Virus record (IMG/VR): IMGVR_UViG_3300035661_000011
Location: 64,001 to 128,000 of that record
Length of the DNA stretch: 64,000 nucleotides
Reading direction: 5' to 3' (one strand)
DNA from: a virus
In this document: one piece after another, positions 28,914 to 49,829 of the stretch
How the letters are laid out: the number at the start of each line of letters is the position of its first letter
Numbering within the stretch: the stretch's first letter is position 1
Translations under genes and position numbers: made by a program
Notes under the pieces: model-generated
What the model was told of the DNA's origin: nothing
Database searches by the model: none
The model's input: the letters and a program-made list of their open reading frames with translations, nothing else

Positions 28914-28935
28914 ATAAGTCTTTTTTTTTTACATT

Positions 28936-44591: not shown

Positions 44592-44625
44592 TGATGAGTA
44601 TCACAGGAATCTGTGATACTCATCA
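44592..44625. terminator. 15-bp stem, GAAT loop
   Basis: TGATGAGTATCACAG GAAT CTGTGATACTCATCA. Confidence 0.7.
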
Positions 44626-44632
44626 TTAAAAC

Positions 44633-44647
44633 AAATATATATTATCT
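44633..44647 (+). promoter_or_regulatory. Putative early promoter motif, copy 6
   Basis: AAATATATATTATCT. Confidence 0.7.
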
Positions 44648-45289: not shown

Positions 45290-46975
45290 ATGCCACAAAA
45301 AACAGTTACATTAGGGTTGAACAAAGAAAACATGATTGGCGCATTGAAAAATTCATTTACTAATAAGGAAACGTTCCTTGGTGAATTGATGCAAAATGCA
45401 CGTCGTGCCGGTGCAACAAAAATCAAATTTAAGTACGACGAAGAACATAACGCACTAACTATTGAAGATGATGGTTGTGGGTTGGATAACTTTGAAACGC
45501 TTTTAACAGTTGCAGAAAGTGGTTGGTCAAAAGAAGTAGTAGAAGCGGAAAGTCCATTTGGTATTGGGTTTCTGTCTGCTATATTTTCTTGTGAAGAGGT
45601 ACAGATTGTTTCAAAGTGTGGAGTGTTACATTGTCTTACCGAAGATTTGTTGCAATTTAAACCATGTACAGTTATCCCCGAAGGTGGTATTCGCCAACCT
45701 ATAGGCACTTCAATTTTAATGGTCGGATGCACAGCACTTAAAGGCGACACTACGATTAAGAAAAGTGCTACTACGGTATTATTAAAGGCACTTCAACATC
45801 TTGCGTTGGGGTTTCCGATTCCAGTGTCGTTTAATGGGACAGAACTACCTCGTCCCAACGCAGTGGGGTCTAATTTTGTCAAAACGGAAATTGGGGATGT
45901 TCATGTCCCGTTAAATTATATTGGTGCGGAATATATGTACTACCGCCGATACCATAACTTTGTAGTTTATCTACAGGGGCTTCCTGTTGATACCCCTAAT
46001 TTAGATTACTACACGAGATCTGAATACGATAGTAAACTTAACATCGTTGTACATTTAGACTCTGCGAAGTTTATAGCTAGACTTCCGGACCGAGATAAGT
46101 TAATTAACGAACAGGAAAATATGGCGATCATACGGGCCGGTGTTCGTGAAGCTGTTCGTGAAACAGCCTTATCTTTAATAGCTGCTGGCGATTACGAAAG
46201 TGTATGCAAAAGTTTCTCAACAATTAACCACTACGACTTACTGGAACTTTATAATGAAGTTCCAATTCTTCCATGTGGAGTATTAAGTCATTTCATTAAT
46301 GGCGAGGGTGTAAATTGCGACAGTGAGAGTTTTGGCGATTGCAAAATACCAGTCTCTGAATATCTAACTCGTGAGAAAGTAAGCGGTAACACTGTTACAT
46401 CTGAGTGTGACTTTGATAAGTACGGTATGGTACACTTAGTGTATGCAAAGATGAAAAAGAAGTATATCTACACTTCGTGGTATGCTAATAAATTAGATTC
46501 CAAACACTGGTTATTCGAAGAAGCTGTAAATTTAGATAAAGAAGAGTATTCCATTAAATTAAACGGTGAAGTGTATAACACTGAATTTACTGGTGGGTGG
46601 TTGTATTGTGGTGTAACATTTTGTGATTCTTACGAGCTAACTATTGCAGGGGATACAATCGTTGTAAGTGACCTTGCATTATATTCTGGTGATGGGAGCA
46701 ACTTAATAGTCCCATCTGGTGTTACAACTGGTGACTGTATATCACAGGTCAGTAGTTTTAAAGATTATGACTCATTTCAAGACACTTCGTATTGTAACGA
46801 TGTTGCAAAATTTGAACAGTTCATGGTCACATCACGATTACGCCATGACCCAGAGAAAGCGTTTCTGGCCAACCTGAGAGAAATCGATGCAATGGCTTGC
46901 TTAAGTAACAAAACATTTACTGTGGACATTGGTGAGACAGGTAAAGTGGTCTCAGTTGTTGAAGTAAAGAAATAA
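45290..46975 (+). CDS. GHKL (HSP90/MutL/MORC-like) ATPase domain protein
   Basis: ELMQNARRAGA (N box), IEDDGCG (G1), PFGIGF (G2), GT. Confidence 0.8.
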   Translation: MPQKTVTLGLNKENMIGALKNSFTNKETFLGELMQNARRAGATKIKFKYDEEHNALTIEDDGCGLDNFETLLTVAESGWSKEVVEAESPFGIGFLSAIFSCEEVQIVSKCGVLHCLTEDLLQFKPCTVIPEGGIRQPIGTSILMVGCTALKGDTTIKKSATTVLLKALQHLALGFPIPVSFNGTELPRPNAVGSNFVKTEIGDVHVPLNYIGAEYMYYRRYHNFVVYLQGLPVDTPNLDYYTRSEYDSKLNIVVHLDSAKFIARLPDRDKLINEQENMAIIRAGVREAVRETALSLIAAGDYESVCKSFSTINHYDLLELYNEVPILPCGVLSHFINGEGVNCDSESFGDCKIPVSEYLTREKVSGNTVTSECDFDKYGMVHLVYAKMKKKYIYTSWYANKLDSKHWLFEEAVNLDKEEYSIKLNGEVYNTEFTGGWLYCGVTFCDSYELTIAGDTIVVSDLALYSGDGSNLIVPSGVTTGDCISQVSSFKDYDSFQDTSYCNDVAKFEQFMVTSRLRHDPEKAFLANLREIDAMACLSNKTFTVDIGETGKVVSVVEVKK

Positions 46976-46983
46976 CGGTATTT

Positions 46984-47017
46984 GGTATAGTGGAGACAGC
47001 AATGTCCCCACTATACC
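46984..47017 (+). terminator. 15-bp stem (one mismatch), GCAA loop
   Basis: GGTATAGTGGAGACA GCAA TGTCCCCACTATACC, T-run 6 nt downstream. Confidence 0.7.
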
Positions 47018-47041
47018 GGTGTCTTTTTTAGGAGAGTGCAA

Positions 47042-47113
47042 ATGAAAGAAGAATATATAAAACTAGTAAATCTTCTAACGGAATGGAATCAACATTACCA
47101 TATCCAGGTGTAG
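47042..47113 (+). pseudogene. 23-aa mini-ORF, possible gene remnant
   Basis: AGGAG SD then MKEEYIKLVNLLTEWNQHYHIQV*; weak resemblance to the first helix of NAD-dependent ligases. Confidence 0.2.
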
Positions 47114-47242
47114 ACTTCGTAGAAATGTACACTGGTTTATGTAGTGGTGTAGTTACTTTGAAAAAAAGTAACCTACGTAAAAGATAAAGTATTACGTAAA
47201 CAAAATAACAAACTTGAATAACAACATTTAAAGAGGTAACCG

Positions 47243-47893
47243 ATGTCAAAAAATGATATAGAGCTAGTCTGTTTTGTTAAAAGAATGCGTGTAATGAAAG
47301 ATAACAAAAGTGTAGTGCATTATTCACTCGATATATCGGTGTGTTCAACAATGAACATAAGTTCCATTTATTTACCAGCTTGCCAACTAATGTTAGAGTT
47401 AGAGTCATTGGATGAAGTAAATGAATATGTAACTCGTATTACTAATTTCTATAACAAGTTTGGAAAGATTATTGAACTTGAAGAAATCGAAGACGAAGTT
47501 GGGTTTACAGTACGTGAGAAAACACGACTACTTAACAGATCCATTGCTAGTTACAAAAGTAATGTTAAAAAGCTTTTAGACGGCACTTATATTTCTGATA
47601 AAGACTATGACTTGTTTCGTGGTTTAGTGTACACGTGGCAGATGGATGTAATTGCAGCAGCCCGTGAATCAATTGTAACACCGAATGATAAAGTCGGGAT
47701 ACACGTTCACATTGAAACCTCAGGGTTAATAAACTACCAGTTAGTAGCGACAGTGTATTCACTATTTGATGAAACAGAAAAAGCTATACGATCTGGAACA
47801 GAAGTGAATCCTGAAATCGTGTGGCATGATTTAAACAACTTCATTGAAAACGTGTATTCGTTTTATGAAGAAGACAACCGTAAAGTAGGTTAA
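47243..47893 (+). CDS. Hypothetical protein
   Basis: 216 aa, GAGG SD. Confidence 0.65.
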   Translation: MSKNDIELVCFVKRMRVMKDNKSVVHYSLDISVCSTMNISSIYLPACQLMLELESLDEVNEYVTRITNFYNKFGKIIELEEIEDEVGFTVREKTRLLNRSIASYKSNVKKLLDGTYISDKDYDLFRGLVYTWQMDVIAAARESIVTPNDKVGIHVHIETSGLINYQLVATVYSLFDETEKAIRSGTEVNPEIVWHDLNNFIENVYSFYEEDNRKVG

Positions 47894-47896
47894 TAT

Positions 47897-48502
47897 ATGT
47901 CATTAATAAACTCTATACAAGCCAGACCAGATATGTATGTCGGTCCAACAACATCATATGAATCTGTTGGAAACGTTATCATGGGAGTAGTTGAACATTC
48001 AGTTTTAAGAAACCATGATATGGACGATCTGAAAATTACAATTACGTTAAACCATGACGGCATACACATACATGACAACGGGTGCACGTTACCTGTGAAG
48101 TTAGATGAATCAGTTGGTTTGTCTATGGCGGAGTTAATGCTTACCACCAATAGATTCAGTAGCCCAAAAGATGAAATTTATTGTTTACAAGCAGCTGTCG
48201 CTTTGTCGAGTACGCTTTCCATTAAGGTACACATTGGAAAGTACACATACTGTCAATCGTACGCCAAAGGTTATCCAAATGCACCACTTGAATATCAAAC
48301 TGGTTCTTTAGGAAGTAGCAACGTTAAAACTGCTACAGACATTACATTTGTCCCCTGTAAAAACTATTTCGGCTGTGAATGGCACTGTACCGCTTTACTT
48401 GACTATTTAAGTTCTGAGATTGACATCTTAATTGGTCCACTTAAGAGTGTAACTGTAGATGTGTGTCTGGTAACCAAATCAACAATTAAATCTGGTCGTT
48501 AA
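47897..48502 (+). CDS. Stand-alone degenerate GyrB/ParE N-terminal ATPase-like domain
   Basis: IQARPDMYVG, IHDNG..LP, GLSMAELMLT, VALS, QSYAKGYPNAPL, TDITFVP align with GyrB residues ~15-180. Confidence 0.8.
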   Translation: MSLINSIQARPDMYVGPTTSYESVGNVIMGVVEHSVLRNHDMDDLKITITLNHDGIHIHDNGCTLPVKLDESVGLSMAELMLTTNRFSSPKDEIYCLQAAVALSSTLSIKVHIGKYTYCQSYAKGYPNAPLEYQTGSLGSSNVKTATDITFVPCKNYFGCEWHCTALLDYLSSEIDILIGPLKSVTVDVCLVTKSTIKSGR

Positions 48503-48506
48503 CAAC

Positions 48507-48538
48507 TGAGTGACATACACGCCTGTGTATGTCACTCA
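48507..48538. terminator. 14-bp stem, GCCT loop
   Basis: TGAGTGACATACAC GCCT GTGTATGTCACTCA. Confidence 0.7.
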
Positions 48539-48595
48539 TCGTAATCGTGTGGACTAAACACTTCTTTTTTTTTTACACACGACAAGGATACAGAT

Positions 48596-49789
48596 ATGCC
48601 TCTCCTTAAATACGACCGTACAGGAATAGCTTCTACTAATTTTGTACCAAACGAATCACATCCTGTTAATCTAACACCAGGTTTTATAATAGCCACAGAA
48701 CAAGGGTTCTTCTATACACAGTCGTTAAAAGTGGTATCGATGCCAACTAACACTATGTTAATTCGTGGAAAGGATTATATTCTAATTGGATTCTCTGCTA
48801 CAGTTACAGAAACCACTGGACTCGAAGTACACGCTGGTATACAGTTAATTAATGAAACCTTGAGTGGTACAGTAGAACTTACTTATCAAGCCGTAGGTGG
48901 ACTTATAGGTGCTTCCAATTCACTAATTTACGATTTAGTAGAACAGCTAAAACATAAACCAACCGAATTGGAATATAGTCAGATTACTAATCTACCAGAT
49001 ATGTTTCCTCCAGCTGACCATCTACATGACATAATGGATTTAGATGGAGTCACTGCAATCGTCCATTATGCGAGAGATATAGTTGAAGCTTTGTCAGGTA
49101 GACGTGCTCCAATTCAATCTGGGTTAAATGCTTTAACTATGATTAATAATCAGAATAAAGTGATAGCTGAGTTACTAAAGCGTCTAAATGACATGGAGGT
49201 TGTCCAGTCTACACTGGTGCAAAGTGGTGGAACTGTGATTGGTGTACAAGGTCCTATTGGTCCTAAAGGAGACCCTGGTGTCGGTACGCAAGGTCCAGCT
49301 GGGCCTAAGGGTGATCCAGGGGTTGGTATACGCGGTCCAATTGGACCACCAGGAATAGTTGACAACTACCATTTAGCAGATGCACTTAATGTACAGTTAA
49401 TAGACTTAATTCCAAATGGTGGGATTACAGCTAACGACACACTGTTTACCGCTATCCAAAAGTTAGTATCACACCTTACACCTACAACAAATATATTCAC
49501 TATAGTACCACCAAGCTTTGGGTTCCCAGTTAATATTGGTGACACTATGACAAACCCAAATATATTATTATCTGGTGTAACTAACACATTGAATTTACCA
49601 CAAAGCGTAAATGTAACACCTGTAACAAACGTTTCGTATGGAACACTAACACTTACCGCCAGTGGCGGATTTACGTATATTAATAACCCGTCTATTAGCA
49701 CACCTCATATAGACGATACATTTACATACGAAATACGAGACTCTATTGGAAATATAACACATCGCACCGTAAACATAAACCTTTTATAA
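48596..49789 (+). CDS. Tail-associated protein with phiKZ-type anchor, collagen repeat and C-terminal Ig/cadherin-like domain
   Basis: YDRTG...NFVPNESH, YQAVGG, FPPADHLH; Gly-X-Y run GPIGPKGDPG; GTLTLTASGGFTY...DTFTYEIRD. Confidence 0.75.
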   Translation: MPLLKYDRTGIASTNFVPNESHPVNLTPGFIIATEQGFFYTQSLKVVSMPTNTMLIRGKDYILIGFSATVTETTGLEVHAGIQLINETLSGTVELTYQAVGGLIGASNSLIYDLVEQLKHKPTELEYSQITNLPDMFPPADHLHDIMDLDGVTAIVHYARDIVEALSGRRAPIQSGLNALTMINNQNKVIAELLKRLNDMEVVQSTLVQSGGTVIGVQGPIGPKGDPGVGTQGPAGPKGDPGVGIRGPIGPPGIVDNYHLADALNVQLIDLIPNGGITANDTLFTAIQKLVSHLTPTTNIFTIVPPSFGFPVNIGDTMTNPNILLSGVTNTLNLPQSVNVTPVTNVSYGTLTLTASGGFTYINNPSISTPHIDDTFTYEIRDSIGNITHRTVNINLL

Positions 49790-49793
49790 ATAG

Positions 49794-49829
49794 ACAATGA
49801 CACTGCCAGTTAACTGGCAGTGTCATTGT
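49794..49829. terminator. 36-bp perfect palindrome
   Basis: ACAATGACACTGCCAGTT|AACTGGCAGTGTCATTGT then AGTTTTT. Confidence 0.75.

Follow-up and report, generated by a model that had tools for sequence, protein, structure and literature searches.

DNA gyrase represents an essential hub and a major drug target. Within gyrase, the only protein partner of the 24-kDa ATPase subdomain of GyrB (GyrB24) is the other GyrB24, and in authentic GyrB dimers the face that carries the nucleotide pocket and the lid holds ATP and receives the N-terminal strap of the partner subunit. For two phage peptides of ~50 amino acids (aa), Gip of the CGP3 prophage and Igy (LUZ24 gp9), a modulating effect on host gyrase that involves no DNA damage has been proposed or demonstrated (PMC10886550). 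A review from 2024 that deals with proteins inhibiting gyrase covers toxins, pentapeptide-repeat proteins, YacG and MurI in addition to these two phage peptides and describes no GyrB-domain mimic (PMC10886550); a full-text literature search for GyrB pseudoenzymes returned nothing relevant. Here we describe pseudo-GyrB24 (hereafter pseudo-GyrB), a free-standing relative of GyrB24 that is encoded in a 64,000-nucleotide stretch of viral DNA (referred to as the window), which represents bases 64001-128000 of the 154.5-kb IMG/VR viral contig IMGVR_UViG_3300035661_000011.

The contig has a CheckV completeness of 54%, and its virion genes are distantly related (~25% identical) to those of phiKZ-like jumbo phages such as Vibrio phage BONAISHI, Erwinia phage PhiEaH1, and Serratia phages 2050HW and Moabite. 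We tentatively favour a reading in which pseudo-GyrB is a selected, non-catalytic mimic of GyrB24 that would act by binding, most plausibly at the N-gate of host GyrB or ParE and together with p216, the product of the gene directly upstream; we infer both its target and its effect, and we consider this reading possible rather than probable. The gene and its most constrained segment are located as follows.

47897 to 48502, + strand: pseudo-GyrB24, a stand-alone GyrB N-terminal GHKL subdomain (equivalent to about GyrB residues 13 to 215) with the catalytic residues replaced, as judged from open reading frame (ORF), homology, fold, residue table and selection
48074 to 48211, + strand: most constrained segment of pseudo-GyrB (aa 60-105), in which the former G1 box, now DNGxT(L/F)P, is followed by the pocket helix S(M/I)AELMLTT, the shortened former lid and the helix YC(L/V)QAAVALSS, as seen by comparison with the related locus L003

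Homology, active-site residues and selection

The ORF at 47897-48502 is intact and encodes 201 aa. In a phmmer search of the PDB, the best match of this protein was A. baumannii GyrB23 (E 1.6e-8), accompanied by ~50 further GyrB/ParE chains. NCBIfam models matched at E values of 3e-12 to 8e-11 for gyrB and of 2e-6 for parE, the gyrB matches lying below the family cut-offs (45.8 bits vs 796 and 41.2 bits vs 882), and Pfam-A gave zero matches. The phage topoisomerase (topo) II family phrog_543 was matched weakly (E 2e-5 to 1.7e-4, 24 bits) and at profile positions 92-218 of 661 only; as the gyrB models outscore both parE and phrog_543, the domain belongs with bacterial GyrB and not with T4 gp39. 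With regard to structure, an AlphaFold2 (AF2) model built from a 67-sequence alignment reached a predicted local distance difference test score (pLDDT) of 91 and a predicted template-modelling score (pTM) of 0.87. When this model was used as the Foldseek query, the top matches were all GyrB24 crystal structures (TM 0.75-0.80), and VIA-align placed model residues 1-195 on E. coli GyrB residues 13-211 with a Z of 23 and a root-mean-square deviation of 2.1-2.4 Å over ~186 residues. The predicted model has the GHKL 24-kDa subdomain fold of GyrB and ParE, and these results agree with a first-pass annotation of the window, made by eye from the sequence, which had described an intact ORF restricted to the N-terminal GHKL domain of GyrB/ParE with the beta-sheet retained. 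In the viral structure library BFVD, the best matches were full-length topoisomerases, and no comparable stand-alone viral protein was seen.

Homologues were sought with a word-indexed search of 5.8 billion proteins, which returned one orthologue, and with an exhaustive HMMER search of 1.84 billion cluster representatives, which added a second orthologue and a paralogue. The orthologues are P0002 (65% identity, 201 aa, L003:2622-3227) and P0003 (53% identity, 198 aa, in L007); the paralogue (209 aa, 35% identity, L003:2005-2634) lies in tandem with the L003 orthologue, the start of which it overlaps by 13 nt, and occurs in this one lineage only. In the exhaustive HMMER search the family was confined to a small phage clade, further matches being ordinary GyrB at E values of at least 1e-10. 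Among 50,697 phage records, megablast with the 4.8-kb region found no match, and tblastn with pseudo-GyrB found genuine GyrB, ParE and topo II proteins only and no stand-alone relative. A pattern scan of IMG/VR with the pseudo-GyrB protein found no match, an IMG/VR scan anchored on DUF7194 found a single related contig that stops short of the cassette, and PADLOC identified no defence-system match for pseudo-GyrB. Partial or superficially similar sequences were also encountered: short parts of the pseudo-GyrB profile (positions 58-89 and 124-191) are matched 17 and 24 times in the metagenomic repeat proteins P0004 (999 aa) and P0013 (3176 aa), respectively, and P0008 (215 aa, from a 1.2-kb JGI contig) is an apparently dead short GyrB-N protein with E42 replaced by V, N46 replaced by H and the lid lost, in which the full N-terminal strap is kept.

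Residue positions were read from alignments to Salmonella GyrB, the numbering of which equals that of E. coli, and were compared across four family members (the window protein, its two orthologues and the paralogue). The general base E42 is glycine in the window protein and both orthologues and serine in the paralogue, the Mg ligand N46 is histidine in the former three and phenylalanine in the latter, and the ExxxN motif of GyrB and ParE (Glu42 plus Asn46) is absent from pseudo-GyrB; D45 is replaced by glutamate in the window protein. The G1 box (motif II, DxGxG) reads D-N-G-x-T in all four members, with the Asp and the first Gly kept and Thr replacing the second Gly (G77). K103 is lost, and the lid region is 10 residues shorter in the window protein and its orthologues, where the GGLHGVG run is deleted and no Gly-rich lid (GGKF...GGLHGVG) is left; in the paralogue the lid is 6 residues longer. 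Residues 91-102, which correspond to the former lid, are predicted to be helical in the AF2 model. No Arg is found opposite R136 in either alignment, and T165 varies across the four members (T/T/M/A). D73, G75 and P79 are invariant in all four, and the pocket positions V43, V71, I78, I94, M95 and V167 remain hydrophobic in the family. The replacements of E42 by G, N46 by H and G77 by T as well as the loss of the Gly-rich lid, all proposed in the first-pass annotation from an alignment by eye, are borne out by the alignment to Salmonella GyrB. Retention of the arm region, also proposed there, holds in part: the RPxMY(V/I)G helix that follows the arm (GyrB 20-28) is kept, but the true N-terminal strap (GyrB 2-14, with Tyr5 and Ile10), which serves ATP-dependent dimerisation, is missing, the alignment beginning at GyrB residue 13-15. 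Lacking the general base as well as the Mg ligand and the lid that binds phosphate, pseudo-GyrB could not supply ATPase activity for any partner, and judged by its residues it is a non-catalytic, stand-alone GyrB24 pseudo-enzyme.

The remaining parts of a type II topoisomerase are missing both from the protein and from its surroundings. Pseudo-GyrB stops at about GyrB residue 215 and has no transducer (Q335/K337), TOPRIM domain or GyrA-binding tail, and likewise none of the transducer and TOPRIM parts that full-length phrog_543 proteins include. Profile searches of the window, extended to the whole 154.5-kb record, gave zero matches for PF00204 (transducer), PF00521 (GyrA/ParC) and PF01751 (Toprim) and no second match for phrog_543, in line with the earlier report that the window holds no transducer, TOPRIM or gyrA. 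The 70-kb contig of the closest relative contains no topo II parts either, and a split phage topoisomerase, which had been put forward as one of two findings that would refute the first-pass interpretation, was thus encountered in neither sequence.

The four copies are all intact and of nearly equal length, and pairwise ratios of nonsynonymous to synonymous substitution rates (dN/dS) between orthologues were 0.17 (window and L003), 0.20, and 0.33, with dS near saturation. Intact copies without frameshifts or internal stops, together with dN/dS values of 0.17 to 0.33, indicate purifying selection rather than decay, and point to a pseudo-enzyme, as first proposed, and not to a plain pseudogene. 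Constraint is strongest in aa 60-105, which are 89% identical to the L003 orthologue (proportion of nonsynonymous differences, pN, 0.06; proportion of synonymous differences, pS, 0.77, synonymous sites being saturated), as compared with 40-72% in other segments. When the window and L003 are compared, pseudo-GyrB is the fastest-evolving gene of its neighbourhood (65% aa identity vs 74-98% for flanking genes); rapid evolution and duplication in one lineage would fit a pattern that is common among host-interaction genes. The gene was probably captured from a bacterium and later lost its ATPase function.

The p216 unit and its neighbourhood

The features that surround pseudo-GyrB are, in order of position:

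44638 to 44647, + strand: TATATTATCT, an early-promoter-like motif just 3' of the hairpin at 44592-44625 and ahead of a small membrane protein gene and GHKL-561
45290 to 46975, + strand: GHKL-561, a neighbouring 561-aa HATPase_c_3 GHKL ATPase with intact motifs
46984 to 47017, + strand: hairpin of 15 bp that separates GHKL-561 from the p216 unit and is followed after 6 nt by a T6 run
47018 to 47242, + strand: leader of the p216/pseudo-GyrB unit, 225 nt, with a deletion scar recognised by comparison with L012 and L013
47243 to 47893, + strand: p216, a 216-aa acidic orphan protein whose gene stops 3 nt ahead of the pseudo-GyrB start
48507 to 48538, + strand: perfect 14-bp hairpin that closes the pseudo-GyrB unit; in L003 and L004, compensatory changes preserve its stem

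The stretch from 47018 to 48538 thus holds the leader, p216 and pseudo-GyrB, in this order. The gene for p216 immediately precedes pseudo-GyrB (in L003, its tandem paralogue) in all five loci in which the two were found (the window, L003, L007, L012 and L013), and p216 homologues are confined to the same phage lineages as pseudo-GyrB; the consistent partner of pseudo-GyrB is p216, which had not been flagged earlier. Searches of Pfam, PHROG, PADLOC, NCBIfam, the PDB and the atlas returned no match for p216, and its AF2 model, built from a 4-sequence multiple sequence alignment, was unusable (pLDDT 43). We rejected an origin of p216 as a scrambled leftover of the remaining GyrB sequence, as hhalign against a full-length GyrB profile gave a probability of 0.6% and aligned a 10-residue NPExxW stretch only. 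This stretch, at aa 186-195 of p216 (47798-47827), is an invariant (T/I)(E/D)(V/I)NPEIxWH that resembles the GyrB C-terminal GEMNPEQLWE, probably by chance.

Two strain variants, L012 and L013, have 99.4% nucleotide identity to the window and carry a 2.35-kb insert between window positions 47106 and 47147, which encodes a complete NAD-dependent DNA ligase with all Pfam domains and a basic 149-aa protein (p149). In the window, 47042-47104 corresponds to the first 21 codons of this ligase, intact in both variants, and L003 shares the deletion scar. The codon remnant and the insert indicate an ancestral unit composed of ligase, p149, p216 and pseudo-GyrB, from which the window and L003 have lost the first two; the polymorphism spans 47018-47242 in the window and is represented by L012:1425-3861 and L013:2-394. 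No other DNA ligase was found in the 154.5-kb record. In L012 and L013 all four genes lie in one hairpin-bounded unit, and the presence of the ligase in the same block places the p216/pseudo-GyrB pair among DNA-metabolism genes.

With regard to transcription, the TATATTATCT motif, for which 33 matches were counted vs 19.6 expected, occurs upstream of the block at 44638 only, the p216 leader contains no copy of TATAT(T/C)ATCT, and no pattern of a TATTAC-type promoter motif was seen ahead of p216. In L012, the ligase start lies only ~24 nt beyond the 46984 hairpin; given this spacing, read-through from the 44638 promoter is possible, and we do not claim transcriptional independence of the unit. 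The hairpin between GHKL-561 and the p216 unit may not terminate, and both would then share one transcript. In addition to the hairpins already listed, including that at 44592-44625, a further perfect or near-perfect one is present at 49794-49829. The element CTTTTTTTTTTACA was observed at 48565-48580 and 28920-28935, each time just upstream of a gene located behind a hairpin; its copy ahead of a fibre-like gene is kept in L003 and L004, and a role as promoter or terminator is possible.

GHKL-561, described in the first-pass annotation as an intact GHKL ATPase, does have a HATPase_c_3 N-terminus with its motifs intact. It belongs to a large bacterial family with hundreds of homologues, common in mobile elements of Methylococcales, and its nearest named homologues (35-39% identity over the full length) are from Methylomonas, Methylobacter, Methylicorpusculum and Crenothrix, all Methylococcales. 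In two methanotroph genomes the homologue is part of an integrated mobile element, which in one case also carries SSB, RecT, YqaJ and Toprim-primase and in the other CbbQ, VWA and DUF3150. These homologues hint at a possible phage host and a possible origin of the GHKL-561 gene. Across 45618-49801, comparison of the window with L003 shows 96-98% nucleotide identity in GHKL-561 and the p216 leader, 82% from the p216 start codon onward and 68% in pseudo-GyrB, and this drop at the start codon points to a recombination boundary at the cassette edge.

Possible roles of pseudo-GyrB

According to the N-gate reading that we tentatively favour, pseudo-GyrB would be made together with p216 from one hairpin-bounded block and would dock on the ATPase domain (N-gate) of host GyrB or ParE as a one-sided partner, accepting the host strap and contributing no strap, lid or ATP itself; in this way, the ATP-driven closing of the clamp in host gyrase or topo IV would be blocked or redirected during infection, without DNA cleavage. 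Host GyrB24 is proposed as the target because a GyrB-derived domain would most naturally bind GyrB24's own partner, and a one-sided cap is favoured because strap and lid are lost and the strap-receiving surface is the most constrained; on these features, gyrase targeting by pseudo-GyrB is plausible. In further support, the 154.5-kb record itself encodes no type II topoisomerase parts, and host-gyrase inhibitors of phage origin form an established class that includes Gip and Igy (PMC10886550). Several points weigh against the N-gate reading, among them that p216 has no recognisable fold or homologue (searches of Pfam, PHROG, the PDB and the atlas; AF2) and that ~46% of the phage genome lies outside the record, as estimated from its CheckV completeness. 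The strap (residues 2-14) and the ATP lid, i.e., the two main elements of the N-gate interface, are missing on the phage side, and real GyrB dimerisation is ATP-dependent, which together make stable heterodimerisation uncertain. The dominant-negative pseudo-enzyme of the first-pass annotation is accordingly upheld as a selected, catalytically dead domain but weakened as a classic N-gate partner. Finally, the conservation of the pocket face would suit a small-ligand site equally well.

A ligand module of this kind, in which what is left of the Bergerat pocket would hold a small molecule, adenine-containing or other, without hydrolysing it and would serve as a sensor or as a sponge for signalling nucleotides, draws on the invariance of D73 (the adenine N6 contact), G75 and P79, on the pocket helix as the most conserved segment, and on the hydrophobic character kept at V43, V71, I78, I94, M95 and V167. 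T165 is not kept in the family, however, Thr replaces G77 in all members, the phosphate and Mg contacts (N46, K103 and the Gly-rich lid) are gone, and we found no precedent for such a ligand pocket in the literature searched; we regard this role as unlikely. A decoy for attackers of the GyrB ATPase domain (FicT adenylylation, Cpe1-type protease toxins or aminocoumarin-like antibiotics), which would spare the host gyrase that the phage needs, is in our view quite unlikely. The overall GyrB24 surface is preserved in the pseudo-GyrB model and the phmmer alignment puts an invariant Tyr95 opposite GyrB Tyr109, but the MAFFT alignments have a gap at Tyr109 and model residues 91-102 are helical, hence leaving no exposed lid loop. 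The motif that Cpe1 recognises and cleaves in GyrB, LHAGG|KF (PMC12136450), is replaced by TNRFSSP, and aminocoumarin contacts are gone, with N46 lost and no Arg at the R136 position in either alignment. With the targeted residues missing, the decoy role against FicT, Cpe1 or aminocoumarins is disfavoured, including the toxin decoy raised in the first-pass annotation.

Other explanations place pseudo-GyrB inside phage physiology or deny it a function. The p216/pseudo-GyrB pair may be a phage-internal factor of DNA metabolism or trafficking that serves replication, repair or the phage nucleus, possibly as an adaptor that brings a host type II topoisomerase or other protein to the phage nucleus or into it, without inhibition of the host enzyme. 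Such a role, which we rate as rather unlikely, would fit the hairpin-bounded unit shared with the DNA ligase in L012 and L013, the phiKZ-like virion genes, and the lack of an own topoisomerase in the 154.5-kb record; it has a precedent in the phiKZ nucleus, where TopA is the only known host protein inside and its import needs the lineage-specific adaptors Imp4 and Imp5 (bioRxiv 10.1101/2024.03.27.586873). On the other hand, the pair resembles no known import factor, the present phage is assumed to form a nucleus on the basis of distant relatives alone, the phage can do without the ligase, which the window and L003 have lost through deletion, and an adaptor that binds host GyrB faces the same objection of a missing strap and lid. 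A more specific version, in which the pair is a handle that captures a host type II topoisomerase for a nucleus-forming phage, with the dead GyrB24 docking on the N-gate and p216 linking it to the import or replication machinery and with supercoiling or decatenation supplied inside the nucleus, would be a long shot. Pairing of pseudo-GyrB with GHKL-561 as its regulatory or structural partner (a mixed GHKL pair), which the first-pass annotation had offered as an alternative, is very unlikely. GHKL-561 does lie upstream in the three of three loci that reach far enough (the window, L003 and L012), and the sole early-promoter-like motif (44638) precedes it, with an intervening hairpin that may not terminate; the two genes are, however, split by this conserved hairpin and, in L012 and L013, by the 2.35-kb ligase cassette, and they show different recombination histories between the window and L003 (98% aa identity for GHKL-561 vs 65% for pseudo-GyrB). 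Moreover, pseudo-GyrB resembles GyrB and not the HATPase_c_3 family, and none of the 4 bacterial GHKL-561 loci examined (L014-L017) has a GyrB-like or p216-like sequence within 6 kb in any frame. The proposed partnership thus finds no support. That pseudo-GyrB is a decaying gyrB-fragment remnant, or that it supplies the ATPase portion of a split functional phage topoisomerase whose other parts lie in the genome outside the record, appears extremely improbable: 46% of the genome does lie outside, and some jumbo phages encode topo II (BFVD matches), but four diverged copies are intact and of near-equal length with dN/dS of 0.17-0.33, ATP hydrolysis is implausible without general base, Mg ligand and phosphate-binding lid, no transducer lysine is available in cis, and neither the record nor the relative's 70-kb contig holds topo II parts.

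If N-gate binding by pseudo-GyrB is true, a new inhibitory surface on GyrB/ParE would be defined. The gene also bears on how DNA topology is managed for the protein-nucleus-enclosed genome of a phiKZ-like phage when the phage encodes no topoisomerase.

Comparison with known systems

The closest structural counterpart of pseudo-GyrB is the GyrB 24-kDa ATPase subdomain (PDB 4DUH, 1EI1 and 7PQI), with which it shares fold, sequence homology, the RPxMYxG helix, D73, G75 and P79. Pseudo-GyrB differs from GyrB24 in that it is free-standing, without strap, transducer, TOPRIM or tail, in that E42, N46, G77 and K103 are replaced, and in that the Gly-rich lid is deleted. The large subunit of T4-type topo II (gp39; phrog_543) is likewise a phage-borne protein with a type IIA GHKL domain and gives the weak match described above (E 2e-5, 24 bits); gp39-type proteins, however, keep the catalytic motifs as well as transducer and TOPRIM, whereas pseudo-GyrB is nearer to bacterial GyrB and lacks the catalytic residues.

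A bacterial family of stand-alone GyrB-N proteins of 207 aa (P0059 and P0072; P0026, P0047 and P0116 look alike) is GHKL-only and, like pseudo-GyrB, ends near GyrB residues 215-220. By contrast with pseudo-GyrB, to which it is ~25% identical, this family keeps E42 and part of the lid, which is partly degenerate; as the HMMER link between the two is no closer than that to ordinary GyrB, independent origins are probable. Genes of the 207-aa family were located at L008:6001-6624, L009:2434-3057 and L010:1889-2512, where they are divergent from a PF02900 LigB-family gene, and in L008 RadC and an integrase lie just downstream.

With regard to function, Gip and Igy would occupy the same niche as pseudo-GyrB if the N-gate reading is correct. 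Compared by description, these peptides are unrelated to GyrB, one being a GyrA binder and the other a putative DNA mimic, whereas pseudo-GyrB is a 201-aa copy of a gyrase domain. Pseudo-GyrB is hence a candidate phage modulator built by domain mimicry of its presumed target, and a phage-borne, selected copy of the gyrase ATPase subdomain without catalytic residues would represent a different modulator design from that of the toxins, pentapeptide-repeat proteins and small phage peptides known to act on gyrase, i.e., subunit-domain mimicry.

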